Part shown: positions 1-62,368 of the stretch, in pieces
How the letters are laid out: the number at the start of each line of letters is the position of its first letter
Numbering within the stretch: the stretch's first letter is position 1
NCBI GenBank assembly: GCA_049287345.1
Contig: JBAQFQ010000017.1
Coordinates: 4,555-68,554, forward strand
Direction: 5' to 3'
DNA from: Candidatus Moraniibacteriota bacterium
GTDB taxonomy: Bacteria > Patescibacteriota > Minisyncoccia > Moranbacterales > UBA9337
DNA: 64,000 bases
The notes under the pieces: model-generated
The model's database searches: none
Seen by the model: only the letters and a program-made list of their open reading frames with translations
What the model was told of the DNA's origin: nothing
Position numbers and translations under genes: made by a program

Positions 1-443
1 CCCCCTACATTGGGCAATTTGCCGAGCAGAATATTAAATGGACAACTGGCTTAAAATTGGCCTCTATCATTCAGCGAGAGGCAGGTGGAAAATCTGATAT
101 GCCACTGATTGCAGGAATTATGTGGAACCGCTTAAATCAAGAAATGAATCTAGAGATAGACGCAACGGTGCAATATGCACGTGGAAAAATTGAGACGACT
201 TGGTGGGCTCCGATAAAAGCAGAAGATATTACCAACATTGATTCACCTTATAATACTTATAAATATAAAGGTTTACCGCCGCACCCGATTTGTAATCCCG
301 GGCTGGATGCTATCGAAGCAGTTTTAAATTCTACTGAAACAGAATGCTTATATTATCTTCACGATAGTAATCGAGAAATCCATTGTGCTAAAACTTATGA
401 AGAGCATAAGATAAATATCGAGAAATATCTTTTAAGAGTTTAA
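1..443 (+). CDS. mltG: MltG/YceG-family endolytic murein transglycosylase, C-terminal fragment (gene begins upstream of window)
   Basis: Frame is open from base 1. The YKGLPPHPICNPG and LYYL..D motifs match the C-terminus of the full-length MltG at 54826..55833. Confidence 0.7.
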   Translation, partial: PYIGQFAEQNIKWTTGLKLASIIQREAGGKSDMPLIAGIMWNRLNQEMNLEIDATVQYARGKIETTWWAPIKAEDITNIDSPYNTYKYKGLPPHPICNPGLDAIEAVLNSTETECLYYLHDSNREIHCAKTYEEHKINIEKYLLRV

Positions 444-459
444 ATAAAGTTTAAAATAT

Positions 460-1005
460 ATGAAAGAAGAAAAAGTTTTATTTAATGCTAGTCTGGGTTT
501 TTTATTACGAGAAGATAAAATTTTACTGGCTAAAAAAGCCAAAAAAATTGGAGCAGGCCGCTTAAATGGTTATGGTGGAGGAATTGATGGTGATGAAACT
601 CCCCAAGAATCAATGGTTCGTGAGCTAAAAGAAGAGGCTGGAGTTATTACCTCGGAAAGTTCTTTGGAAAAAGTGTCCATCATTGATTTTCATAATACCA
701 AAAGTGACGGTCAAACATTTGTTTGTAGAGTGCATATTTTCTTTATCAATGAGTGGATAGGCGAGCCGAAAGAAAGTGAAGAAATGCTAAATCCTACTTG
801 GTTTGATATAAAAAATCTTCCTTTTGACGAAATGATGCCCAATGATAAAGATTGGCTACCTCAAGCGTTAGCAGGAAAGAAAATAATTGCCAAAGCTTAT
901 TTGGGACCTTTTCAAAAAGAGTCTCTGGCGAATATGGAGATTGAAGTTGTAGAAAGTTTTTCGGATAATTTTTGCCCACCGAACCCAAGTGTAGCAATCT
1001 CTTAA
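460..1005 (+). CDS. NUDIX hydrolase (MutT-like)
   Basis: Nudix box GGGIDGDETPQESMVRELKEEAGV (G-x5-E-x7-REuxEEuGu). Confidence 0.8.
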   Translation: MKEEKVLFNASLGFLLREDKILLAKKAKKIGAGRLNGYGGGIDGDETPQESMVRELKEEAGVITSESSLEKVSIIDFHNTKSDGQTFVCRVHIFFINEWIGEPKESEEMLNPTWFDIKNLPFDEMMPNDKDWLPQALAGKKIIAKAYLGPFQKESLANMEIEVVESFSDNFCPPNPSVAIS

Positions 1006-1021
1006 TATAAAACTTTCCAGT

Positions 1022-1138
1022 TGTGTCATCTCGAGCCCATCCGCCAGCTGGCGGAGGAGTCGAGAGATCTATGTTTTATATCGCATCTATTATTTGAGAT
1101 TCCTCCACTTCGCATTCGCTTCGGTCGGAATGACAACC
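1022..1138 (+). repeat. Family-2 intergenic element, copy A: TGTGTCAT + long imperfect hairpin + AGATCT ... second hairpin + ATGACAA
   Basis: Homologous to 62283..62368 and 49219..49290. Conserved flanks around structurally equivalent but sequence-divergent hairpins; the ends TGTGTCAT / ATGACAA are imperfectly inverted. Confidence 0.5.
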
Positions 1139-1231
1139 GATAGCCTATTGAAGTATTTATTTTGCAGCGGTAAAGAAAAAGTTTTTTGTGTTATACTGAG
1201 TTAAGATTGAAATAATTTTAAATTACGCTAA

Positions 1232-2992
1232 ATGAAACAAGAAATTGCTTTTAAAATTTTATGTTCGGGAGAAAATGTTTTTTTAACTGGTTCAGCGGGA
1301 ACGGGTAAAACTTTTGTGATTAATCAATATATTCAATATTTAAGAGAGCGAGGAATTGAACCGGCAATTGTTGCTCCCACCGGGATTGCGGCTTCACACA
1401 TTGGCGGTAAAACCATTCATTCTTTTTTTAGTGTGGGCATTCGAGAATACATCGATGATTACTATCTGAGATGGATGAAACGACAAACGTTTTTAGATAA
1501 ACGGATGAAAAACATGAAAGTCTTGATTATTGATGAGATTTCCATGGTTTCGCCAGAATTATTTTTTTCTATGGATAGAATCCTGCGTGCCTTTAAGGAC
1601 GAAGAAAAGCCTTTTGGCGGCGTGCAGGTAGTTTTATCAGGAGATTTCTTTCAATTACCTCCAGTAGCCAAGACCCCTCGGGAACTAAAGTTTGTCTGGC
1701 AGACCCAGCTGTGGCAAGACGCTAATTTAAAAATCTGTTATTTAAAGGAAAAATTTAGACAAGAAGAAAATAATCAATTGATCAATATTTTAGATGAAAT
1801 TCGCTCCGGAGAAGTTTCGGAAGAATCCATGGAAATTTTTCGAACAAGATATAAAAAAAAGCTAGCCAATGATTTTACTATCACAAAACTTTATACTCAC
1901 AATGTGGATGTAAATAAAATCAATGATGGTGAGCTCGATAAGCTACCTGGGAAAGCTTTTGTCTTTGAGGCGGAAACCAAGGGTTCCAAACAAAATATTG
2001 AAAAGATTTTTAAAAGTTCCTTAGTTTCCCAGGAGGTGAAATTAAAAGTGGGGGCTACGATAATTTTTATTAAAAATAATTACGAAAAAGATTATATCAA
2101 TGGGACATTGGGAAAGATAATCGGCTTTCAAAATAAAACCAACTTTCCTATTGTGGAAGTTTTTGATGGCAGGAAGATTGTTGCTACACCAGAAGAATGG
2201 CTTTGGGAAGATGATAAAGGGAAAATTAAGGCGATCGTTAAGCAATTGCCGATTAAACTAGCTTGGGCGCTTACAATTCATAAGTCTCAAGGGATGACTT
2301 TGGATGCAGCGGAAATTGATTTGAGTAAAACTTTTGAAATCGGGCAAGGTTATGTGGCTCTGTCTCGAATTAAGTCTATAGAGGGTTTACGTTTGATGGG
2401 ACTTAACGATATCGCCCTACAGGTGGATAGGCTAGTATTGGAAAAAGATAGTTTTCTTAAGGAAGAATCTCATTGTAATTTTAGAAAATTTCAAGAAATC
2501 GCGGAGGTTGAATTTATAGAAATATCGGAGCAGTTTATAATTAAAATTGGTGGAGAGAAAATAAGTCAAAAAACAAATTCCAAAAAACCTGCCTACCGGA
2601 CAGACAGGCAAGCTGCAAATAAAAAAGAGGAAGAAAAAAAATCTTTTTCTGGGAAATCTAGCGCTAGGGGGACACTGGAAGTTACCAAAAGAATGGTGCT
2701 GGGCAAGAAAACACTTGAAGAAATTGCTAAAGAAAGAGGTCTCGCAAAAGACACGATTGTTAGTCATTTAATGCAGCTTAAGAAACTTTTACCAGAAACA
2801 GATATTGATTACCTAAAACCTAAAGAACAAATTTTAAGCTTAGTACTAAAAGCTGTTGATAGTATAAAAAAAGATAAAAATCCCGAGAATCTTTCCCAAG
2901 ATGGGCAAGTGAAGTTAAAGCCAATTTTTGAATTCCTAAATAAAAAAATTTCTTATGATGATATAAAGCTGGCGATGTTATTTTATAAATAA
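1232..2992 (+). CDS. PIF1/RecD-family ATP-dependent DNA helicase with C-terminal HTH-like tail
   Basis: Walker A GSAGTGKT, Walker B LIIDEISMV, and the GDFFQLPPV and ALTIHKSQG motifs typical of PIF1/RecD/TraA-like helicases. Confidence 0.8.
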   Translation: MKQEIAFKILCSGENVFLTGSAGTGKTFVINQYIQYLRERGIEPAIVAPTGIAASHIGGKTIHSFFSVGIREYIDDYYLRWMKRQTFLDKRMKNMKVLIIDEISMVSPELFFSMDRILRAFKDEEKPFGGVQVVLSGDFFQLPPVAKTPRELKFVWQTQLWQDANLKICYLKEKFRQEENNQLINILDEIRSGEVSEESMEIFRTRYKKKLANDFTITKLYTHNVDVNKINDGELDKLPGKAFVFEAETKGSKQNIEKIFKSSLVSQEVKLKVGATIIFIKNNYEKDYINGTLGKIIGFQNKTNFPIVEVFDGRKIVATPEEWLWEDDKGKIKAIVKQLPIKLAWALTIHKSQGMTLDAAEIDLSKTFEIGQGYVALSRIKSIEGLRLMGLNDIALQVDRLVLEKDSFLKEESHCNFRKFQEIAEVEFIEISEQFIIKIGGEKISQKTNSKKPAYRTDRQAANKKEEEKKSFSGKSSARGTLEVTKRMVLGKKTLEEIAKERGLAKDTIVSHLMQLKKLLPETDIDYLKPKEQILSLVLKAVDSIKKDKNPENLSQDGQVKLKPIFEFLNKKISYDDIKLAMLFYK

Positions 2993-3136
2993 AAACATAA
3001 GTTTTATTTGGAGCACAGTTTTATTTTTTCTTTAAAGGGTAGTATACTTGAGTTAGTTTAAAATTCTTGAATAATCAAAGGTCGATAAATAAATTTGTAA
3101 GTAAAATAAATATAAAATAATAATTAATATAAAAAA

Positions 3137-4270
3137 ATGAAAAAGATTGTAACAATTATTTTAGTAGCTTTATTTTTTTGGGGAACAGGATTAGCTAACG
3201 CGCAAAAAGAAGAAAAAGTGAAATTAAAGGCTGAAAATATACAAATAAAAACCAAGAAACCTATCTCAAACGAGGAGATAAATAAATTAGAAGAACTTTA
3301 TCCCAAGGGGAAACCGTCAACCTCAGTTGATTCAGTTACTAAATTTATTTTTCCAGCAACCGGCATAAACGCTCCAGCTGTGGTTGGTCAGAAATATGCC
3401 ATTGTAATCGGAATGGCTAATTATCCAGGAATGGATTTTGATTTATGTGTGCCTGAGGCAAGGACAGATTTAAGTATGCCAATTTCGGGGCTATCATTAT
3501 ATTGTAAGGATGATGATTCACATCACATGAAAAATACTTTAATTAGTAGCGACTATGGTTTTAATGCAGAAAATATAAGGTGGATTGCTGATGCGGATGC
3601 AACTTATGACAACATTAAGACTGCTGTAGATGAAATAAAACTTAAACTTACCGAAAACGATGAATTGGTGTTCTTTTTTAGTGGACATGGATTTACTGGT
3701 CAATTTAATGATCCGACAGGCGTTAGCGACTCTGATAAAGATGGAGTGGATGAGGCTATTGGTATTTATGATAGTACCTATCCAACCGATGAGTCTATTT
3801 TAGCTGATCCAACTGTTTTAGATAATTATGATTATACTAAATCCAATGCATTAATTTTTGATGATGAGTTGAGAAATTGGTTTGTAAATTCACCCACCAG
3901 CAGGATAGCTTTTATTTTTGATATTTGTGGCGCAGGGGGTATGAGTGATTTAGCTGGAGAGGGAAGAGTTTTGGCAATGTCTAGTCTTGAGGGTCAAACT
4001 TCCTATACTTATTATTTGGGAGGAACATATACTTCCGCAACTACTATTCAAGAAAGCCAGGGATTGTTTAGTCATTATTTTGTTAATAATGGCATGGAAA
4101 GTGGCTTAGCGGACGGATACAATTTACTAAGCAAAAGAGATGCTAAGAAATATGATGGGAAAGTTTCGATTGAAGAAGCTTTCGGATATGCTTATCCGAT
4201 TATAAAAAGTGTTAAACCACAAACTTCAATCTTAAATGATTCAGATAAATTATTGGATTTCTTGCCATAA
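3137..4270 (+). CDS. Secreted caspase-fold cysteine peptidase (C14/C13/CHAT-like)
   Basis: Signal peptide MKKIVTIILVALFFWGTGLANA. Caspase-like catalytic dyad context FFFSGHG (His) and FIFDICGAGG (Cys); YAIVIGMANY start of the fold. Confidence 0.5.
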   Translation: MKKIVTIILVALFFWGTGLANAQKEEKVKLKAENIQIKTKKPISNEEINKLEELYPKGKPSTSVDSVTKFIFPATGINAPAVVGQKYAIVIGMANYPGMDFDLCVPEARTDLSMPISGLSLYCKDDDSHHMKNTLISSDYGFNAENIRWIADADATYDNIKTAVDEIKLKLTENDELVFFFSGHGFTGQFNDPTGVSDSDKDGVDEAIGIYDSTYPTDESILADPTVLDNYDYTKSNALIFDDELRNWFVNSPTSRIAFIFDICGAGGMSDLAGEGRVLAMSSLEGQTSYTYYLGGTYTSATTIQESQGLFSHYFVNNGMESGLADGYNLLSKRDAKKYDGKVSIEEAFGYAYPIIKSVKPQTSILNDSDKLLDFLP

Positions 4271-4335
4271 AAAAGGAAAAATTAAAAAAACACTATCTTG
4301 GCAAAGAAAGTATTTTTTTAAAAGTTATGCTATAA

Positions 4336-5217
4336 TTGAAGCAATTTAAAATCTTTAATAAAAAAAATATGAATCAAAAAATAATGCCAGTCTATCTGTT
4401 TGTTACATCATTCTTTTTATTAGCAGGTTTTGCTACTATGGTGGCAATAGCCAAGAATGATAATGCTAACAATAACGAAAATAAAAGCGAAAAGTCAGAA
4501 AAAACTGAGAAGTCAGATAAATCCTCTCAGTCGACGAAGGATGGTGAAAAAGTGGTTAATCTTAAGGATTATAAAAAGGCAGATACAACAAAAGGAGAAA
4601 GTAATGCAAAAATACACAAAGAAAAAACTACTGAGGTGATAGAAAATTTAGAACAAGAGCAGCTACAAGTCCAAACAGAAAATGCAGGTACAGAAGAAAA
4701 ACTTAGGGTAGAAACTAGAAATAAAGCAAAGAAGCAAATTGAAGAGGTGGCAACTGAGCAAGAAGCCTCTCAGGAGCAAGTAGCAGAAGCAATTGAAGAA
4801 GTTGAAAATGATGGTGCAACTAAGAAATTTTTTCTGGGGCCAGATTATAAAAACTTGGGGCAATTAAGAAGTGAGTTGGTGCACAATAGAAATCAAATTA
4901 GAAAACTTACGCAAGCCATTACTGCATTATCTCAAAATGAAGGAGATATAACTAATCTTCAGTTACAACTGCAAACTCTCACACAAGAGAGAGAAAGAAT
5001 TAAAAATATAATTACCACCAATCAAGATGGTTTTAGCTTGTTTGGTTGGGTGAGCAGGTTTTTAACTAACTATGAAGAAACTCCAATAAATGAAACCGAG
5101 GAGGAAGAATTAATAACAGAAGTTGAAGAGACAATTATTGATGACGGGGTAGTGGATAACATTGATGCTCCAATAGTAACAGAAACTTCAGCGCCAGTTA
5201 CAGTGGTTACTCCATAG
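4336..5217 (+). CDS. Membrane-anchored coiled-coil protein with acidic C-terminus (hypothetical)
   Basis: N-terminal TM helix, KE-rich coiled-coil heptads, D/E-rich tail; no recognisable catalytic motif. Confidence 0.45.
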   Translation: MKQFKIFNKKNMNQKIMPVYLFVTSFFLLAGFATMVAIAKNDNANNNENKSEKSEKTEKSDKSSQSTKDGEKVVNLKDYKKADTTKGESNAKIHKEKTTEVIENLEQEQLQVQTENAGTEEKLRVETRNKAKKQIEEVATEQEASQEQVAEAIEEVENDGATKKFFLGPDYKNLGQLRSELVHNRNQIRKLTQAITALSQNEGDITNLQLQLQTLTQERERIKNIITTNQDGFSLFGWVSRFLTNYEETPINETEEEELITEVEETIIDDGVVDNIDAPIVTETSAPVTVVTP

Positions 5218-5241
5218 GAAGGTCTTTGAATTTAAATATGA

Positions 5242-5270
5242 AAAACACTCCCTCGGGGAGTGTTTTTTAA
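5242..5270 (+). terminator. Rho-independent terminator
   Basis: Hairpin AACACTCCC-TCG-GGGAGTGTT followed by a T tract. Confidence 0.6.
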
Positions 5271-5333
5271 TTGGGTAATAAAGTCGTTTAATATTTGAAA
5301 AGAGTAAGTTGAATTAAGAATTTCTGAAATAGT

Positions 5334-5361
5334 TTGACAAAAAAAATGAATTTGCTATTAT
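5334..5361 (+). promoter_or_regulatory. Sigma70-like promoter for lexA (TTGACA-N16-TATTAT), with palindrome TGTTTGGTAAACA at 5377..5389
   Basis: Near-consensus hexamers ~100 nt upstream of lexA. The perfect 5-N3-5 palindrome sits just downstream of -10 and is a candidate operator. Confidence 0.4.
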
Positions 5362-5460
5362 GAATTATATAGTGAATGTTTGGTAAACAAGCGCAAGTGA
5401 GCATTAAAACAAAAGAACATAAAAACAATAAGGCAATTTTAATTTTTTAATTTAAAAAAT

Positions 5461-6105
5461 ATGGAAATATTAACCCCCAAACAAAAAATAGTATTGCAAG
5501 CTATCAAGAGTTATTATTCAGAGCACGGCATCATGCCCACAATTCGAGAAATTAAAGATGAAGCTGGGAATCTTGGTTTAAATTTAAAGAGTATCCGAAG
5601 TTTCTTTAATTACTTAAATGAGCTAGAGGAAAAAGGATATATTCAAAGAACTTCTGAAGATAGGGGGATTGAATTGAGAGGGCTTAATCAGCAGATGTTT
5701 ATCGATGTGCCAATTCTAGGTATGGCAAATGCAGGAATGGCCTTGGCTTTTGCAGATGATTATATCGAAGGTTATTTAAAAGTTTCCAAAAGTATTGTGC
5801 GAGATAAAAATGTTTTTGCGATTCAGATTTCTGGAACCTCAATGAATAAGGCAAAAGTAAATAATAAGAATATTGGTGATGGGGATTTTGTTTTAGTAGA
5901 AAAAACGGAGGACTATGTTTATGGTGATAAAGTTTTAGTAGTAATTGATGGTTTGGCTACTGTAAAAACATATCGAATTTTTGATGAGGAAAATATTGTT
6001 TTAGCTCCAGACTCTACTGATAAAAAGCATCAACCGATTTTCCTAACTAAGGAGGATAACTTTGTTATTACCGGTAAAGTGATTGATGTTTTAAAAATAC
6101 GATAA
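5461..6105 (+). CDS. lexA: LexA repressor (S24 peptidase)
   Basis: N-terminal winged HTH (MPTIREI..LGL.S.RS); catalytic Ser in ISGTSM and Lys in VKTYR context; C-terminal S24 fold. Confidence 0.85.
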   Translation: MEILTPKQKIVLQAIKSYYSEHGIMPTIREIKDEAGNLGLNLKSIRSFFNYLNELEEKGYIQRTSEDRGIELRGLNQQMFIDVPILGMANAGMALAFADDYIEGYLKVSKSIVRDKNVFAIQISGTSMNKAKVNNKNIGDGDFVLVEKTEDYVYGDKVLVVIDGLATVKTYRIFDEENIVLAPDSTDKKHQPIFLTKEDNFVITGKVIDVLKIR

Positions 6106-6124
6106 ATTTAAAAAATTAAAAAGT

Positions 6125-6613
6125 ATGATTATATTTATTAGCGGGTCAATTAATGCTGGCAAAAGTACCGTAGCTAAATTGTTGGCCGAAAAAATTAAAA
6201 ATACCGCCGTAGTGGAGGTGGATAGTTTTCACGAGTTCGTCCCTTGGATGCCAATTGCTGAGAGCGTTTTGATTAATTTAGAAAACGCTGTTTTGGTAAT
6301 TAGAAATTTTTATAAAAGAGGTTTTAATGTAATTGTCCCTTACCCACTTTCCAAAAGAAATTATGAATATCTAATGGAAGAATTAAAAGATATTATTGAG
6401 GATATTTCTATTTTTACTTTGAGCCCAGATCTCAAAGAAGTGCTTAAAAATAGGGGAAAAAGAGAATTGACTGAGGCGGAAAAGGAAAGAATTAAATATC
6501 ACTACTCAATTGGCATTGATAATCCTACTTTCGGAAAAGTTATCAATAACACCAAGCAAGCTCCAGAGGAAACGGTAGAAAATATTTTAGAGTTAATGGA
6601 TAATAAAAACTAA
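6125..6613 (+). CDS. Small P-loop kinase (AAA_33 / zeta-toxin-like nucleotide kinase fold)
   Basis: Walker A GSINAGKST near the N-terminus; ~160 aa. Confidence 0.55.
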   Translation: MIIFISGSINAGKSTVAKLLAEKIKNTAVVEVDSFHEFVPWMPIAESVLINLENAVLVIRNFYKRGFNVIVPYPLSKRNYEYLMEELKDIIEDISIFTLSPDLKEVLKNRGKRELTEAEKERIKYHYSIGIDNPTFGKVINNTKQAPEETVENILELMDNKN

Positions 6614-8086: not shown

Positions 8087-8181
8087 TTTTTTCACTTGCT
8101 TTTAAGGGATAGTGTGATATAAATAAAGCAAAAGAAACATCGTATATTTATGAGTCGGATTATTATTTAATTTTTTATTTT

Positions 8182-8287
8182 AATCTACCTACACTCAAGC
8201 TTCGGCAGACGAGCTCGTTTTGAGTAAATTCTCCACAGCTTGCTTCAAGTAGGGTCCAGGGCAAGCCCCTAGGGTTAATACCTTTTA
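8182..8287 (+). repeat. Family-1 intergenic repeat, copy 1 (AATCTACCTAC..AAGCTTCGG..ACGAGCTCGTTTTGAGTAAATTCTCCACAGCTTGC..GC-rich hairpin..ACCTTTTA)
   Basis: ~85-90% identical to copies at 9421, 21382 and 39278, all on the + strand between + strand genes. Confidence 0.85.
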
Positions 8288-8292
8288 ATAAT

Positions 8293-9447
8293 ATGAAGAA
8301 GCTGGCTATCTTGGGAAGCACAGGTAATGTTGGGACACAAGTTTTAGATGTTGTGGATCAATATCCTGATAAGTTTAAAGTGGTGGCACTTTCGACAAAT
8401 AGTAATATTGAATTATTAAAAACGCAAATAGAAAAATATCAGCCATCTTTTGTGGGAGTAGCCGATGAAATAAAAGCTAAAGAATTAAAGGAACAAATTA
8501 ATGTTCCTATTTTTTTTGGCGAAAAAGTTAATATCCAAATTGCCCAGCTGGAGGAATATGATACTTTGATAAATGCGGTAGTCAGTTTAGCGGGGATTGA
8601 GGCTACTTTAGTCGCTATCGAAAAAAAGAAAAACATCGCCCTAGCAAATAAGGAGGCCTTGGTGGCAGCTGGTGAAATTGTATTAAAGGCAGCTAGAGAA
8701 AATGGGGTAAAGATTATGCCAATTGATTCGGAGCATAGTGCTCTATTTCAATGTTTAAATGGTGAAGATATTAAAACAGTCGAGCAATTAATTATTACTT
8801 GTTCAGGTGGGGCACTGCGAGATAAAACTAAGGAGGAGATTGAATCAGCGACAGTGGTCCAAGCTTTGGGGCATAAAACTTGGGCAATGGGAAAAAAGAT
8901 TACCATTGATTCAGCAACTCTAATGAACAAGGGTTTTGAAGTAATTGAAGCAATGTGGTTGTATGATATGCCCATTGAAAAAATAAAAGTAGTTATTCAT
9001 CCAGAAAGTATCATCCATTCGATGGTGGAGTACACTGATGCGAGCATCATCGCGCAAATATCCGAGCCAGATATGCGACTGCCTATTCAATATGCACTCT
9101 CTTATCCTGAGCGTTGGCAAGCACCAATTAAGAGATTTGAATTTAATAAAAATCTTACCTTTGCTGAGCCTGACTTGGAGAGATTTCCTTGTTTGGGTTT
9201 AGCCTTTTGGGCTGCCAGAGAATTGGGGACATTGCCAGCGGTGATGAATGCCGCCAATGATTTTATGGTGGAAATTTTTTTAAGAGGAGACTGTCGATTT
9301 GGAGAAATTTATAGAATAATTAAGCAGGTTATGGAAGCGCATAAAAATATTAAAAACCCTAGTTTGGCAGAAATTAATCAAGCTATTTTGTGGTCAAGAG
9401 AAAAATCGATGGAGTTTTTTAATCTATCTACGCCCAAGCTTCGGTAG
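8293..9447 (+). CDS. dxr: 1-deoxy-D-xylulose 5-phosphate reductoisomerase
   Basis: N-terminal ILGSTGNVG NADPH-binding motif and full-length similarity to IspC. The last ~9 codons are supplied by repeat copy 2. Confidence 0.9.
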   Translation: MKKLAILGSTGNVGTQVLDVVDQYPDKFKVVALSTNSNIELLKTQIEKYQPSFVGVADEIKAKELKEQINVPIFFGEKVNIQIAQLEEYDTLINAVVSLAGIEATLVAIEKKKNIALANKEALVAAGEIVLKAARENGVKIMPIDSEHSALFQCLNGEDIKTVEQLIITCSGGALRDKTKEEIESATVVQALGHKTWAMGKKITIDSATLMNKGFEVIEAMWLYDMPIEKIKVVIHPESIIHSMVEYTDASIIAQISEPDMRLPIQYALSYPERWQAPIKRFEFNKNLTFAEPDLERFPCLGLAFWAARELGTLPAVMNAANDFMVEIFLRGDCRFGEIYRIIKQVMEAHKNIKNPSLAEINQAILWSREKSMEFFNLSTPKLR

Positions 9448-9530
9448 GCGAGCTCGTTTTGAGTAAATTCTCCACAGCTTGCTAGTAAACAGGGTCCAGG
9501 GGCTTGCCCCTGGGGTTAATTACCTTTTAT
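9421..9530 (+). repeat. Family-1 intergenic repeat, copy 2 (overlaps 3' end of dxr)
   Basis: Same element as 8182..8287. Has a perfect 7-bp stem hairpin CCAGGGG-CTTG-CCCCTGG; the dxr stop codon lies inside the element. Confidence 0.85.
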
Positions 9531-9540
9531 TAAATAATTT

Positions 9541-18560: not shown

Positions 18561-19955
18561 ATGCAAAAGAAAAAAATTTATATGATAAGTATCGAGGGGG
18601 CAGGAACCTCGGCTTTGGCGGTGATTTATAAAAAGTTAGGTTTTGAAGTTTTGGGTTCAGATAATGGTGATCATTTTTACGGAGATGTTTTGAAAAGAAA
18701 TGGCATTGAGGTTTTTGATAATTATGATAGTAAAAATTTACCGGCAGATATTTATAAAACAGTTTATTCTACTTGTGTAAGTAGGGAGAATCCCGAATTA
18801 CTCGCTTCTATTAGTCGAGGAGTTCCAACGATTAGTTACCCAGAGGCCTTGGCTGAATTATTTAATGAGAAGATGGGTATCGCTGTTTGTGGGACACATG
18901 GTAAGACCACTACTACAGCTATCCTAGCTACTGTTTTTAAAGAATTGGGATTAAAGCCCAGTGCCCTAGTGGGAAGCAAGGTTAAAGATTGGCAGGGTAA
19001 TAGTTTAGCGGGTAGCGGGGATTATTTTATTATCGAGGCGGATGAATATCAAAATAAGTTAATGAACTATAACCCTTGGGCGGTTATTTTAACCAGTATT
19101 GATTATGACCATCCTGATTTTTTTAAAAATTTTACTGATTATAAGCAAGCCTTTATTGATTTTGTAAAAAAAATTCCTCGTCATGGATTTCTTGTTTATT
19201 GTAATGATGATAGCGATGTAGTGGAAATAGCTAAGGCAGCCAGTTGCCAGAAAATTAGTTATGGATTTTCCGATGGCAGTAATTTTAAAATAGAGAATTT
19301 TGAGTTTAAGATTAATAATTTTCAAATTAATAATAGTGTTAGTCAATCTTTCGAAGTTTTTTTTAAGGAAAGTTCTCTGGGCAAATTTATGATTGCTCTA
19401 CCAGGAAAGCACAATGTCCTCAATACTACAGCCGTAATTGCCCTGTGTCATAAATTTAATTTAAATAACTTGAGAGTGGCAGATGCCTTAAAAACTTTTC
19501 AGGGAACAGCCAGAAGGTTTGAATATATCGGAGAAAACAAAGGAGCTATTTTAATTGATGACTATGCTCATCATCCAGAGGAAGTAAAGGCTACTCTTAA
19601 AACAGCGAGGAATATTTTTCCTCAAAAAAATATTATTACTGTTTTTCATCCACATTCCTTTAGTCGCACAGAGGCACTACTTTCAGATTTTTCTCAAAGT
19701 TTTGATAATACAAATGAAGTTATTATTTTGGATATTTATGGTAGCGCCAGGGAAACTGAAGGGAATGTGAGTTCACGAGATTTAGTGCGGTTGATCAATC
19801 GTTATAGTCCACAAAAAGCTCAGTATGTGCCAACTATTGAGGAGGCAACAGAAATTATTAGAGAAAAAATGGGGGAAAATGATTTAATTATTTCTATGGG
19901 AGCAGGGGATGTCTGGCACGTGACTCATAATTTAAAAAATAAATATATCCGATAA
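18561..19955 (+). CDS. murC: UDP-N-acetylmuramate--L-alanine ligase MurC
   Basis: Mur ligase P-loop GTHGKTTTT and C-terminal domain motifs. Confidence 0.9.
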   Translation: MQKKKIYMISIEGAGTSALAVIYKKLGFEVLGSDNGDHFYGDVLKRNGIEVFDNYDSKNLPADIYKTVYSTCVSRENPELLASISRGVPTISYPEALAELFNEKMGIAVCGTHGKTTTTAILATVFKELGLKPSALVGSKVKDWQGNSLAGSGDYFIIEADEYQNKLMNYNPWAVILTSIDYDHPDFFKNFTDYKQAFIDFVKKIPRHGFLVYCNDDSDVVEIAKAASCQKISYGFSDGSNFKIENFEFKINNFQINNSVSQSFEVFFKESSLGKFMIALPGKHNVLNTTAVIALCHKFNLNNLRVADALKTFQGTARRFEYIGENKGAILIDDYAHHPEEVKATLKTARNIFPQKNIITVFHPHSFSRTEALLSDFSQSFDNTNEVIILDIYGSARETEGNVSSRDLVRLINRYSPQKAQYVPTIEEATEIIREKMGENDLIISMGAGDVWHVTHNLKNKYIR

Positions 19956-21367: not shown

Positions 21368-21381
21368 GATTAATGATTTTT

Positions 21382-21485
21382 AATCCACCTACGCTAAAGC
21401 TTCAGTGGACGAGCTCGTTTTGAGCAAATTCTCCGCAGCTTACTGAAAGTAGGGTTTAGGGCTTTATCTGGGGTTAGTAATTTTT
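21382..21485 (+). repeat. Family-1 intergenic repeat, copy 3 (most diverged)
   Basis: Keeps the ACGAGCTCGTTTTGAG core. Compensatory changes TTCAGT / ACTGAA relative to the other copies. Confidence 0.8.
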
Positions 21486-21549
21486 ATTAATTAATTAAAG
21501 ATAATTTTATATATTTTTATAAAAATATATAGGAATTATCCACAAACGT

Positions 21550-24237: not shown

Positions 24238-24345
24238 GGGTTTAATTTTTAATTTTGAATTTTTAATTTAAAATGAATTTCAAATGACTTAATTTTAAAA
24301 AGGAACTCTTTAATGCGTTAACTTTAAATAAATAATAATTCTGGT

Positions 24346-39251: not shown

Positions 39252-39277
39252 TTATAGTTTACTGAGGAATAATTTTT

Positions 39278-39384
39278 AATCTACCTACGCCCAAGCTTCG
39301 GTAGACGAGCTCGTTTTGAGTAAATTCTCCACAGCTTGCTGTAAATAGGGCCCAGGGCTTGCCCCAGGAATGGACACCTTTTAT
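39278..39384 (+). repeat. Family-1 intergenic repeat, copy 4
   Basis: Same element as 8182..8287. Confidence 0.85.
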
Positions 39385-39492
39385 TTAAATTTTAACCAAG
39401 GGTGCTATATTGGAAATTGAATTAGGCTATTAGATAAGAGGATGGGTTTGAGTGGGGTTGATTATTAATATAATCTATGTATAATAGTTATT

Positions 39493-40516: not shown

Positions 40517-40597
40517 TATATTCTTACAAGTAAAAATGAAAAATTTAAAAACTCCCCGATTGGGGAGTTTTTAAATTTCAGTGCAGAGATTTATTTG

Positions 40598-40669
40598 TAC
40601 CCCCACCAGGAATCGAACCTAGATCTTTAGCTTAGAAGGCTATTGCTCTATCCGTTGAGCTATGGGGGC
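40598..40669 (-). tRNA. tRNA-Arg (anticodon TCT)
   Basis: Manual cloverleaf: acceptor GCCCCCA/TGGGGGT, D stem GCTC/GAGC, anticodon loop CTTCTAA, T loop TTCGATT, discriminator A; CCA not encoded. Confidence 0.8.
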
Positions 40670-40725
40670 ATAGATGATCTAATTTTAAATTTAAAATTTT
40701 AAATTTAAAATTGCATTCGTACATG

Positions 40726-40798
40726 TGCGCCGTGGGGGATTCGAACCCTCGACCGTTTGCTTAAGAGGCAACTGCTCTACCAACTGAGCTAACAGCGC
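40726..40798 (-). tRNA. tRNA-Lys (anticodon CTT)
   Basis: Manual cloverleaf: acceptor GCGCTGT/ACGGCGC, D loop AGTTGGTA, anticodon loop CTCTTAA, T loop TTCGAAT, discriminator A. Confidence 0.8.
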
Positions 40799-41095: not shown

Positions 41096-41791
41096 ATGAA
41101 ATTTTTTCTAAAAGATAGTAAAAATATCGTAGCGATAATATCGGAAAAAAAGGATGGATCCATGAAGCTCTCTGGAAGCTTATCGGCTGGAAAAAATAGG
41201 GACATCTTTTTAGCTAAAAATGAAATTAATGCTAATAATATTGTTTCGGCGAGGATGATTCATGGGAGTGCAGTGGGGGTAGTTGATAAGAAATCCCCTC
41301 GAGTAATTGAGGGGGTAGATTCTTTGGTGACTAGAGAGAAGATATTTTTAGCTATAACTGTGGCAGATTGTGTGCCGGTATATTTTTATGATAAAAAAAG
41401 TTCAATAATTGGTTTAGCTCATGCTGGTTGGCGGGGTGTAACCGGTGGTGTAATTGAAAATACGATGCAAGCATTAATCGGCCTTGGCGGGAGCAGTAGA
41501 GATATCTTAGTCACCCTAGGACCGGGCATAAAAGCTTGTCACTTTGAAATTAAGGCAGATATTTTGGATTGTTTTAAAAGATATCCAGATTTTATTTTTA
41601 AAAGGAATGATAAAATATTTGTTGATCTTTTCGGTATTATACAGACTCAGCTCTTAGTGTCTGGTATAAATAGTAATAATATTTCTGTTGTTGATGAGTG
41701 TACTTTTGAAAAATGCGATAAATATTTTTCTTATCGTCGAGATAAACCAAAAGAAGTGGAGGTGATGCTGGCAGTGATAGGGTTGAAGTAA
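41096..41791 (+). CDS. PgeF/YfiH-family (DUF152) purine nucleoside phosphorylase / peptidoglycan editing factor
   Basis: Conserved HAGWRG, C/H metal ligands (DCVPVYF; ACHFEI; ECTFEKC..YFSYRRD). Confidence 0.6.
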   Translation: MKFFLKDSKNIVAIISEKKDGSMKLSGSLSAGKNRDIFLAKNEINANNIVSARMIHGSAVGVVDKKSPRVIEGVDSLVTREKIFLAITVADCVPVYFYDKKSSIIGLAHAGWRGVTGGVIENTMQALIGLGGSSRDILVTLGPGIKACHFEIKADILDCFKRYPDFIFKRNDKIFVDLFGIIQTQLLVSGINSNNISVVDECTFEKCDKYFSYRRDKPKEVEVMLAVIGLK

Positions 41792-41932
41792 TTTAAAATT
41801 TTTAATTTTGAATTTTAAATCAATTTTTAATGACTAGATTTTTATTAACTGCATCATCAAATAATTAATTATTAAAAAATTAATATTTGACTCTAAATTA
41901 AAAAATTTGAAATTCAAAATTAAGCGATAGCG

Positions 41933-49131: not shown

Positions 49132-49160
49132 TTGACAAAAAGCCTATTTGGGTGTATAAT
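49132..49160 (+). promoter_or_regulatory. Consensus sigma70 promoter TTGACA-N17-TATAAT
   Basis: Perfect hexamers; drives a ~250-nt leader before the CDS at 49415. Confidence 0.55.
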
Positions 49161-49198
49161 TATAAATTAGTACCTTGAAATAGGAAATGGCAAATTCA

Positions 49199-49309
49199 CC
49201 ACAGCAGAAAGAATTTTATGTGTCATTCCGAACTTGATTCGGAATCTCTCTAGATCCTAAATCAAGCTCAGGATGATGGGAGAAATGCAAAAAACTCTTT
49301 CTGCTGTGG
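49199..49309 (+). promoter_or_regulatory. Structured 5' leader: 14-bp long-range helix (CCACAGCAGAAAGA / TCTTTCTGCTGTGG) enclosing two hairpins with complementary loops; embeds a Family-2 element copy (TGTGTCAT at 49219)
   Basis: Hairpin 1 ATTCCGAA-CTTGA-TTCGGAAT, hairpin 2 ATCCT-AAATCAAGCTC-AGGAT. Loop CUUGA is complementary to UCAAG, a candidate kissing interaction. Confidence 0.4.
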
Positions 49310-49414
49310 CGAAACCATATCGGCCAAGTCTGACAGCGAACATCAAATTGATAAGTCTGGGACTCTGATTATTGAAATTGGAGCGAGGGACGAATCAAAA
49401 ATGGAGGTATTATT

Positions 49415-50080
49415 ATGGCAAAGAGTAAAAGGCAGATTGAAGCAATTTCTTCAGGAATGGGAGTTTTTGTAGCAATTATTTCTGGACTTGTTGAGCTTGT
49501 AAAAAGTTTCGGTGGGTCGATGGAAGATTTGTATAAGTTGGGGACTCCCGAAGGTAGACAAAAGCTGGAAGCGATCGCTTGCATTGTAGTTGGGAAAGAA
49601 ACGGAACTTAAAAATGAGTTTCTTAAACTCATCTCTGGTAATGAAACTCTCACCATTGATGCTTGCGACGGAACTAAAATTCTAGCGGAGGCAAATGATG
49701 TATTCAAATACGTGGACCTTGAATTTAAAAGTTGGAGCGCTGATCGGCGAGGGCAAGCGACTGTAGAAACCTCAGTGGAAGTTTATGAAATAGAGAAAGA
49801 CGCGACGTTTGTTCAAATGTTTAGCTCTCTCTCGTCTGATGTACGGAGACTTTGTTTTACACAAAATCAAATTATCGATTTTGTAAAAAAACATCGAAAG
49901 TGGCTTCAGACTATTGATCATGGAACATTTTTTCTATTTGAGTCCACTGGTGAAATATTCGTCGCCAACGTGAGCGTTGAATCGGGCGGCTTGCTCTGGG
50001 TGGAGGTGTTTCGCTTTGGGCACTTGAGCGTCTGGCACGTTGGGATTCCCCCTCGTTTGGTGATCCCGAAACTGGCTTGA
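49415..50080 (+). CDS. Hypothetical cytoplasmic protein (221 aa)
   Basis: Good SD (GGAGG) 7 nt upstream of the start; no recognisable domain. Confidence 0.45.
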   Translation: MAKSKRQIEAISSGMGVFVAIISGLVELVKSFGGSMEDLYKLGTPEGRQKLEAIACIVVGKETELKNEFLKLISGNETLTIDACDGTKILAEANDVFKYVDLEFKSWSADRRGQATVETSVEVYEIEKDATFVQMFSSLSSDVRRLCFTQNQIIDFVKKHRKWLQTIDHGTFFLFESTGEIFVANVSVESGGLLWVEVFRFGHLSVWHVGIPPRLVIPKLA

Positions 50081-62254: not shown

Positions 62255-62282
62255 TTTAAACAAAAAAATCAAACTTCCCAGA

Positions 62283-62368
62283 TGTGTCATTTCGACCGGA
62301 GCGACAGCGGAGTGGAGAAATCTAAATTAATATTTTGAGATATCCGGGTCAAGCCCGAATATGACAAG
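62283..62368 (+). repeat. Family-2 intergenic element, copy B (TGTGTCAT ... AAATCT ... ATTTTGAGAT + hairpin ATATCCGGG-TCAAG-CCCGAATAT + GACAAG)
   Basis: Alignable to 1022..1138; different hairpin sequences, same layout. Confidence 0.5.

Follow-up and report, generated by a model that had tools for sequence, protein, structure and literature searches.

Inverted dimers of TGTC-tagged hairpin repeats in a Candidatus Moraniibacteriota genome as probable gene-less relatives of the Ssn nuclease cassette

A 64,000-nt stretch of DNA from a Candidatus Moraniibacteriota bacterium (GenBank assembly GCA_049287345.1, contig JBAQFQ010000017.1, positions 4,555 to 68,554 of the forward strand; hereafter the window, G+C content 34.5%) contains three intergenic loci, A, B and C, each composed of two short hairpin units in inverted order with a tetranucleotide tag, usually TGTC, at the outer end of each unit. 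With a probability of roughly 0.78, we consider these loci to be tags-outward ('HH') dimers of TGTC-tagged hairpin repeats that belong with the CGTC-type superfamily of repetitive extragenic palindromes (REPs), the Neisseria sequence NTS and the Ssn-related motifs (SRM), and that represent gene-less shells of the system built around the GIY-YIG nuclease Ssn. The elements are a known class, present here in a genome of the Candidate Phyla Radiation (CPR) and as a subfamily beyond the reach of the published SRM pattern.

Six hairpin units in three intergenic dimers

In a preliminary description of this DNA, three copies of one element had been proposed, each starting with TGTGTCAT and followed by a hairpin and a conserved AGATCT flank. 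The start TGTGTCAT was confirmed at all three positions (1022, 49219 and 62283). When both strands were read, the three loci proved to be real, and the number of copies became six units in three inverted dimers. Each unit had the layout TGTC / AT-stem…loop…stem-AT / CT(C/A), so that the conserved 3' flank was AT/CT(C/A) instead of AGATCT; the 'TCTCTAGATCC' seen in C was the junction of two units. The dimer loci were 58–117 bp long, and their spacers were 24 nt in A, 12 nt in B and 2 nt in C. The composite ends of A and B were TGTGTCAT...ATGACA(A), and the hairpins and inverse ATGACA ends earlier assigned to these two loci were present as described; the second hairpin noted there ('ATTTGAGAT … ATGACAA') was also found, as the second unit read backwards. 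Locus C had been delimited as 49219-49290 with one hairpin only. It is a dimer as well, and ends at 49278. The features of the three loci are as follows.

1010..1023 (+): 5' flank common to A and B, AAACTTTCCAGTTG; in B, at 62271-62284, AAACTTCCCAGATG
1024-1071 (+): unit A+, TGTC / ATCTCGAG...CCGCCAGCTGGCGG...GTCGAGAGAT / CTA, long-hairpin variant
1072..1095: spacer of dimer A, 24 nt, AT-rich, with no coding remnant (tblastn with Ssn gave nothing in the window)
1096-1135 (-): unit A-, TGTCATTCCGACCGAAGCGAATGCGAAGTGGAGGAATCTC, that is, TGTC ATTCC GACCGAAGCGAATGCGAAGTGGAG GAAT CTC
49221-49248 (+): unit C+, TGTCATTCCGAACTTGATTCGGAATCTC, that is, TGTC ATTCCGAA CTTGA TTCGGAAT CTC, 8-bp stem and 5-nt loop
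49251-49278 (-): unit C-, CATCATCCTGAGCTTGATTTAGGATCTA, that is, CATC ATCCTGAG CTTGA TTTAGGAT CTA, decayed, aligned by hand
62285-62324 (+): unit B+, TGTCATTTCGACCGGAGCGACAGCGGAGTGGAGAAATCTA, that is, TGTC ATTTC GACCGGAGCGACAGCGGAGTGGA GAAAT CTA
62325..62336: spacer of dimer B, 12 nt
62337-62366 (-): unit B-, TGTCATATTCGGGCTTGACCCGGATATCTC, that is, TGTC ATATTCGGG CTTGA CCCGGATAT CTC, 9-bp stem and 5-nt loop

Unit C- was degenerate, with CATC in place of TGTC and identity to C+ at 19 of 28 positions. When folded as single-stranded DNA (ssDNA), A+ reached -12.4 kcal/mol (z=-3.1), and z values of -3.25 and -3.9 were obtained for B- and C+, respectively.

The units were recognized by a covariance model, R1, whose seed consisted of 21 equal-length units from unrelated viral and genome contigs, with none from the window. 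The model was run on the window without filters and on both strands (128 kb). Its top five window matches were A- (E=1e-5, the best), C+ (4e-5), B+ (7e-4), A+ (0.13) and B- (0.25); the next match had E=1.1, and nothing else fell below 1. The two weak matches, A+ and B-, each adjoin a strong match in the expected orientation. Because five of the six units were the top matches of a model built on foreign sequences, the pattern goes beyond chance.

Base pairing in the R1 seed was observed in 89.7% of cells, compared with 71% after shuffling and 23–53% when the partners were slid. Both-side changes were found in six of the seven upper-stem pairs, a count that is partly circular, since the seed had been picked for at least 5/7 upper-stem pairs. 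An independent compensatory change from A-T to G-C was observed between B- (ATATTCGGG/CCCGGATAT) and a unit at 6826-6855 of L252 (ATGTTCGGG/CCCGGACAT), a contig of a related Moraniibacteriota genome (GCA_053613725.1, 1.27 Mb), where the unit reads TGTC ATGTTCGGG CTTGA CCCGGACAT CTC. This B- type unit is the first of a tags-outward dimer (L252 6826-6940) located downstream of ftsH, and its partner is unusually long (~68 nt).

The family outside the window and its small GIY-YIG genes

The family is widespread. The pattern TGTCATTNCGA-N(8-38)-GNAATCTC was found at at least 120 loci in IMG/VR and at least 120 loci in GTDB species genomes, searched as contigs with one genome per species. Among the GTDB matches listed, more than 15 phyla were represented, with hosts in Chloroflexota, Planctomycetota, Firmicutes, Desulfobacterota, Alpha-, Beta- and Gammaproteobacteria, Bacteroidota, Omnitrophota, Nitrospirota, Acidobacteriota, Verrucomicrobiota, Cyanobacteria, Spirochaetes, Gemmatimonadota, Armatimonadota, Patescibacteria and one metagenome-assembled genome (MAG) of Nanoarchaeota. 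The Patescibacteria contig (L157) carried two dimers arranged as in the window. Plasmid matches came from Methylosinus trichosporium OB3b, Methylocystis, Calothrix, Trichormus variabilis, Novosphingobium and Legionella, and the plasmid and phage records had no annotation under the matches. A literature search on the consensus strings returned primers only.

The consensus of the family was TGTC ATTGC GA [variable hairpin] GWR GCAAT CTC. A forward unit followed by a reverse one was the commonest adjacent arrangement (6/11), and single units outnumbered dimers elsewhere in the family. In a Chloroflexus sp. MAG (L130 1300-1960), more than eight units were in direct tandem with a spacing of ~50 nt and were followed by inverted partners, unlike the isolated dimers of the window. 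In the IMG/VR loci (L002-L121), units were common in phage contigs, where they lay between structural genes in either orientation, and between related phages the unit at a given intergenic position could be another one or be missing.

Between unit B+ and a unit of an unrelated viral contig (L108), 2 of 40 positions differed. The subtype of A- and B+, GACCGRAGCG-N(2-3)-GCGRAGTGGAG, has no obvious Watson-Crick upper stem, yet a near-identical form of it (2 differences in 40) is carried by unrelated viral contigs (L108, L025), where the flanks are G+C-rich. This likeness suggests either a strong sequence constraint, possibly with tandem G·A pairs, or recent horizontal spread.

A gene associated with the units was sought among their neighbours. 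In an all-against-all BLASTP of open reading frames (ORFs) within 200-300 nt of the units at 120 viral and 120 genome loci, phage structural genes were the only recurrent neighbours, if any. Such a comparison is blind to a single-copy trans-acting gene, and with a partner gene of this kind no recurrent neighbour family would be expected in the 240 loci. A first regular expression for the GIY-YIG domain gave no match on the viral loci. A looser one yielded one case, in an Oscillospiraceae MAG (L162), where a 97-aa GIY-YIG gene had a forward unit on one side and a reverse unit on the other, the inverted repeat being extended (ATCTCCCGGTAC/GTACCGGGAGAT). Homologues of this type were mostly on contigs of 0.5–2 kb, which is typical of repeats that break assemblies. 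Among eight N-terminally extended homologues, seven started with peptides translated from a unit (MSLRGAKRRGNL, CHCEERSDVAIS, AISRY, LLAMT). In the proteins P0241-P0360, ORF callers had often extended Ssn-type ORFs, or made free-standing spurious ORFs, through units, and the peptides MSLRGAKRRGNL, CHCEERSDVAIS and GDCHVALLLAMT are thus an annotation artefact.

The surroundings of such genes were rich in units. In 80 metagenome loci with GIY-YIG genes of 57–83% identity (187 kb in total), R1 found 167 units; across ~80 kb from Moranbacteria relatives, its matches were limited to dimer B and one further dimer. A strict regular expression counted 292 units around the GIY-YIG loci versus 10 in shuffles. 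The bracketing of the genes was examined in the 59 loci that had 200 nt or more of flank on each side, by counting forward units within 150 nt upstream and reverse units within 150 nt downstream. Both sides were occupied in 26 loci, only the upstream side in 12, only the downstream side in 12 and neither in 9 (50/59 with at least one side). The orientation of units near the genes was biased accordingly, with 70 (-) versus 21 (+) downstream and 50 (+) versus 32 (-) upstream. The family defined by R1 therefore brackets small GIY-YIG genes with inverted copies.

The protein of the L162 type is homologous to Neisseria SsnA. It was 48% identical (E=3e-20) to the single SsnA homologue of N. gonorrhoeae, an ORF of 94 aa that has NTS copies on its flanks, among them a tags-outward dimer a short way upstream. 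No NCBIfam match was obtained for this protein, and the PDB gave only a weak match, UPF0213 BH0048. Strict peptide patterns detected no ssn relatives in IMG/VR, and a literature search on COG2827/YhbQ returned nothing. The link between the units and GIY-YIG genes, although recovered independently here, is a rediscovery of a published association, which is described below.

Relation to published repeat systems

Di Nocera, De Gregorio and Rocco (2013, BMC Genomics, PMC3733652) sorted REPs into GTAG- and CGTC-tagged superfamilies. The CGTC REPs have the 5' tag CGTC, with TGTC and CCTC as allowed variants, a stem of 8–9 bp that starts with A-T pairs at the first and second positions, a loop of 4–5 nt and a 3-nt unpaired tail with the consensus CCA (PMC3733652). 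They are extragenic, HH dimers (tags outside) prevail, and the spacers range from 1-2 to 100 bp; the superfamily includes the Neisseria dRS3 and the Rickettsia RPE-4 and RPE-6 repeats (PMC3733652). The survey listed five phyla and found no dedicated enzyme: CGTC REPs seem to have no transposase of their own, and no RAYT gene (for REP-associated tyrosine transposase) was flanked by CGTC repeats (PMC3733652).

The window units share several of these features. The tag TGTC was present in five of the six units, the stem began and ended with AT in all six, and the three loci were all intergenic HH dimers. The geometry of B- and C+ fitted that of the CGTC REPs exactly, and A+, A- and B+ were longer, interrupted variants. 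The six units have a 3-nt tail, which reads CTC or CTA, in contrast to the CCA consensus, which was seen in the Methylosinus plasmid copy.

The second published system was reported by Chenal et al. (2025, Nat Commun, PMC11893778), who found that the NTS (CGTCATTCCCGCGMAVGCGGGAATCYRG) and SRM flank ssnA, a 94-aa GIY-YIG gene (cd10448). Ssn homologues had at least one SRM nearby in 71% of cases and SRM on both sides in 42% (PMC11893778). SsnA bound and cut only the single-stranded DNA form of the NTS, on one strand only, did not act on RNA, and cut a few nucleotides upstream; binding depended most on the C that follows the palindrome, and cleavage on the three nucleotides that precede it (PMC11893778). 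SsnA modulates natural transformation, and the arrangement NTS-ssnA-NTS was considered by these authors to resemble an insertion sequence (IS) (PMC11893778).

The likeness of the present family to NTS and SRM lies in the (C/T)GTC tag, the palindrome starting with AT, the C that follows it and the strand-specific hairpins, and also in the inverted copies that bracket a single-domain GIY-YIG gene of ~95 aa and the hundreds of orphan intergenic copies. The nucleotides critical for Ssn are kept in the window: GTC preceded the palindrome in five of the six units, and C followed it directly in all six. There are also differences. The stems of the subfamily are AT-rich, and many units combine a basal stem of 5 bp with a GA//GWR internal loop and, above it, a long variable hairpin. 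The host of the window belongs to the Patescibacteria (CPR), a group without mention in PMC11893778, and the window has no ssn.

The published SRM pattern, HGTCWYN(0-2)YYVSBRHN(0-5)WNVSBRGN(0-2)RNCYNB, requires G+C-rich stems. It matched the Neisseria NTS used as a control, none of 410 canonical units of the subfamily and 4 of 278 units around the GIY-YIG loci. The pattern thus misses a very widespread subfamily with AT stems and long hairpins. In metagenomes this subfamily brackets genes of the Ssn-type GIY-YIG kind, and it is frequent in phage contigs.

Two other systems resemble the window dimers in outline. REPs and their inverted dimers (REPINs), which are linked to RAYT, likewise consist of a tagged ssDNA hairpin, inverted dimers, a repeat-flanked single-copy nuclease gene and non-autonomous copies; their enzyme is an HUH Y1 transposase versus GIY-YIG here, and their tag GTAG versus C/TGTC, so that the window elements are not members. 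Neisseria intergenic mosaic elements (NIMEs) are short repeat blocks flanked by inverted dRS3 and form long arrays near variable surface-protein genes. They share with the window loci the short intergenic blocks bounded by inverted copies of one hairpin repeat; unlike these long arrays, the window dimers are isolated and lie next to housekeeping genes. The dRS3 repeat is described in PMC11893778.

In our reading, a unit comprises an unpaired (C/T)GTC tag, a stem starting with two A-T pairs, a covarying variable upper hairpin and an unpaired tail starting with C. The units are probably elements at the DNA level. In the characterised relatives the tagged strand folds as ssDNA, and the ~95-aa single-domain GIY-YIG Ssn, bound to the hairpin together with the C that follows the palindrome, makes its nick a few nucleotides upstream of the tag. 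The 5' flank common to A and B may correspond to the zone of variable flank where, in Neisseria, cutting by Ssn nucleases takes place upstream of the tag. As a rule, ssn genes lie between two inverted units (SRM-ssn-SRM), an IS-like cassette. The window dimers show this bracket with only 2–24 nt between the units, and would be gene-less, non-autonomous shells or relics in intergenic DNA. A cognate Ssn may exist in the Candidatus Moraniibacteriota genome and act on these copies. The distribution and architecture of the units suggest that they are mobile, and an effect on neighbouring genes would be conceivable.

Several observations weigh against this assignment. A+, A- and B+ exceed the geometry of 2013 (40–48 nt, with interrupted stems), and the published SRM pattern matched none of the six window units. 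With nearest-neighbour DNA parameters, the folds of A- and B+ were weak (z about 0). No ssn or other GIY-YIG homologue was found in the 64-kb window by tblastn with Ssn, and neither a clean empty site nor a target-site duplication was found at the window loci, in related phages or in Moranbacteria relatives. Finally, dimer C lies in a probably transcribed leader and inside a 13-bp outer stem, where it may have an incidental effect in RNA.

These elements add a CPR genome (Candidatus Moraniibacteriota) to the hosts of CGTC/TGTC REPs and SRMs. They also explain many spurious ORFs (with peptides such as CHCEERSDEAIS, SLRGAKRRSNL and ...LAMT) and broken assemblies. It is of interest whether the Ssn/SRM system is used by CPR bacteria, which depend on the uptake of DNA. 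A broader reading, which we put forward tentatively and hold to be rather unlikely as a whole, would take the family as a large uncatalogued SRM subclass (AT-rich basal stem, GA//GWR internal loop and long variable hairpin with a C(GNA)G cap) that escapes the SRM pattern and extends the Ssn/SRM system to Patescibacteria, Chloroflexota, Firmicutes and phages; in an uptake-dependent CPR bacterium, orphan dimers might then mark incoming DNA for single-strand restriction or as a recombination boundary, a role that has been proposed for Neisseria.

Genomic setting, alternative explanations and other repeats

Dimer A is located in the interval from the stop of a NUDIX gene at 1005 to the start of PIF1 at 1232, upstream of an extended -10 element, TGTGTTATACT, that is common to the window and a relative (L248). 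Relatives with 72–91% PIF1 identity were without dimer A, and their upstream synteny differed or the spacer was not alignable. The dimer stands at a synteny breakpoint: when window 1-6200 was compared with the relative with 91% PIF1 identity (L245), the latter had MCP/SBP genes upstream of PIF1, not YceG-NUDIX, and was also without the two genes at 3137-5217 that part PIF1 from lexA in the window. Most of the 123-nt spacer between gmk and tilS is taken up by dimer B. This dimer was kept in a relative with 98% TilS identity; in a relative with 77% TilS identity, a different upstream gene overlaps tilS. In the close relative L250, GTC of B+ was changed to GCC.

Dimer C lies ~60 nt downstream of a promoter and within an outer stem.

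49132..49160 (+): promoter TTGACA-17-TATAAT, 12/12 consensus matches, ~60 nt upstream of dimer C and not part of the repeat
49199..49211 (+): 5' arm of the outer stem, CCACAGCAGAAAG, 13-bp perfect, encloses dimer C
49297..49309 (+): 3' arm of the outer stem, CTTTCTGCTGTGG

Because of this perfect promoter, dimer C is probably transcribed, in the ~240-nt leader of the gene at 49415. The region 49195-49313 around it folded with z=-6.7. A similar inverted repeat (CATGCCAG...CTGGCATG) was observed around a unit of a viral contig (L095), which may be a sign that units insert into larger hairpins or give rise to them.

This setting bears on the first alternative, which we judge to be quite improbable: that the units are cis-acting RNA elements, i.e. 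terminators, attenuators or stabilisers of 3' or 5' untranslated regions, as proposed for E. coli REPs. Dimer C, placed ~60 nt past a perfect promoter in a 240-nt leader and inside the 13-bp outer stem, would suit such a role, and so would dimer A, which stands between the NUDIX stop and the promoter of PIF1, a place taken in L248 by a terminator-like hairpin. Passages in Di Nocera et al. (PMC3733652) and in a 2026 preprint argue that REPs can act in RNA. The units themselves point elsewhere. No hairpin with a T-tract was predicted as a terminator at A, B or C. Searches of Rfam 15 gave two tRNAs only for the window at the gathering threshold, and nothing relevant for six unit-rich loci at E<=1. 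The tagged strand folded better than its complement in 220 of 241 units, with the reverse in 17. The apical loops were dominated by C(GNA)G triloops (66/241 exact; 73 GNA loops with any closing pair), and GNRA tetraloops were rare among them. The motif GCGNAGC is called an 'extraordinarily stable mini-hairpin DNA' in a passage of a review (PMC13037366), which was the only result of a literature search on GCGAAGC and repeats. The 12 nt upstream of the tag were G-poor.

The orientation of the units relative to flanking genes was even (30 anti/anti and 28 same/same; 161 units of viral contigs), and units occurred at similar rates in co-directional, convergent and divergent intergenic regions; both analyses used crude ORF calls, by which many units fell 'inside' spurious ORFs of high-GC contigs. 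In addition, the elements were not at orthologous positions in relatives, and SsnA does not bind RNA (PMC11893778). The GA//GWR internal loop was inspected, by hand only, for a K-turn or another RNA motif; the strand-neutral genomic distribution argues against a role in RNA. The strand-specific folding, the GNA loops, the neutral orientation and the lack of Rfam matches and terminators indicate an ssDNA structure rather than an RNA element. The functional RNA envisaged in the preliminary description was therefore not supported.

[quoted passage not shown] Part of this stood, as the loci are inverted dimers of a mobile-looking repeat, in the gene-less form of a cassette. A classical MITE derived from a DDE-type insertion sequence, with TGT...ACA ends as terminal inverted repeats and a transposase elsewhere, is very improbable. 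It would account for the composite ends TGTGTCAT...ATGACA(A), the length of 58–117 bp and the patchy distribution among relatives. It would also call for target-site duplications, which were looked for: no direct repeat was enriched at any offset in 365 units, and none was visible at A, B and C. Related phage contigs differed at unit positions by replaced flanks, not by a clean insertion or deletion. Moreover, most family members were single units, no transposase recurred near 280 loci, and the only recurrent cargo between the arms was the GIY-YIG gene.

We give hardly any credence to REPINs moved by RAYT, an IS200/IS605-like Y1 transposase, which share the hairpin with a tetranucleotide tag and the inverted, intergenic dimers; the tag is TGTC and not GTAG, no Y1-like neighbour recurred, and the finding cited above that no RAYT gene is flanked by CGTC repeats also speaks against them.

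Chance likeness of short motifs in an AT-rich genome, to which the count of TGTGTCAT alone would lend some colour (four copies in the whole window versus 0.97 expected, with at least four in 3/100 shuffles, a mild enrichment, and with the fourth copy, at 19444 inside a long ORF and without a hairpin, being due to chance), we regard as refuted by the E values of 1e-5 to 7e-4 from the foreign-built model, the paired arrangement seen three times and the persistence of dimer B in a close relative.

Two further repeat families were observed in the window. One, well conserved, ~117 nt long and presumably the first family of the preliminary description, occurred on the + strand at 8178-8294, 9417-9533, 21378-21494 and 39274-39390, with the core AATCTACCTACGC.CAAGCTTCGGTAGACGAGCTCGTTTTGAGTAAATTCTCC.CAGCTTGCT...AGGG.CCAGGGC and each copy just upstream of a + strand ORF; it had no Rfam match at the gathering threshold. 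The other is an AT-only 32-nt repeat (TAATTTTTAATTTTGAATTTTTAATTTAAAAT-like), with direct and inverted relation among its copies at 24243-24274, 40680-40711 and 41789-41820, all intergenic, one of which sits between two tRNA genes at 40597-40798.

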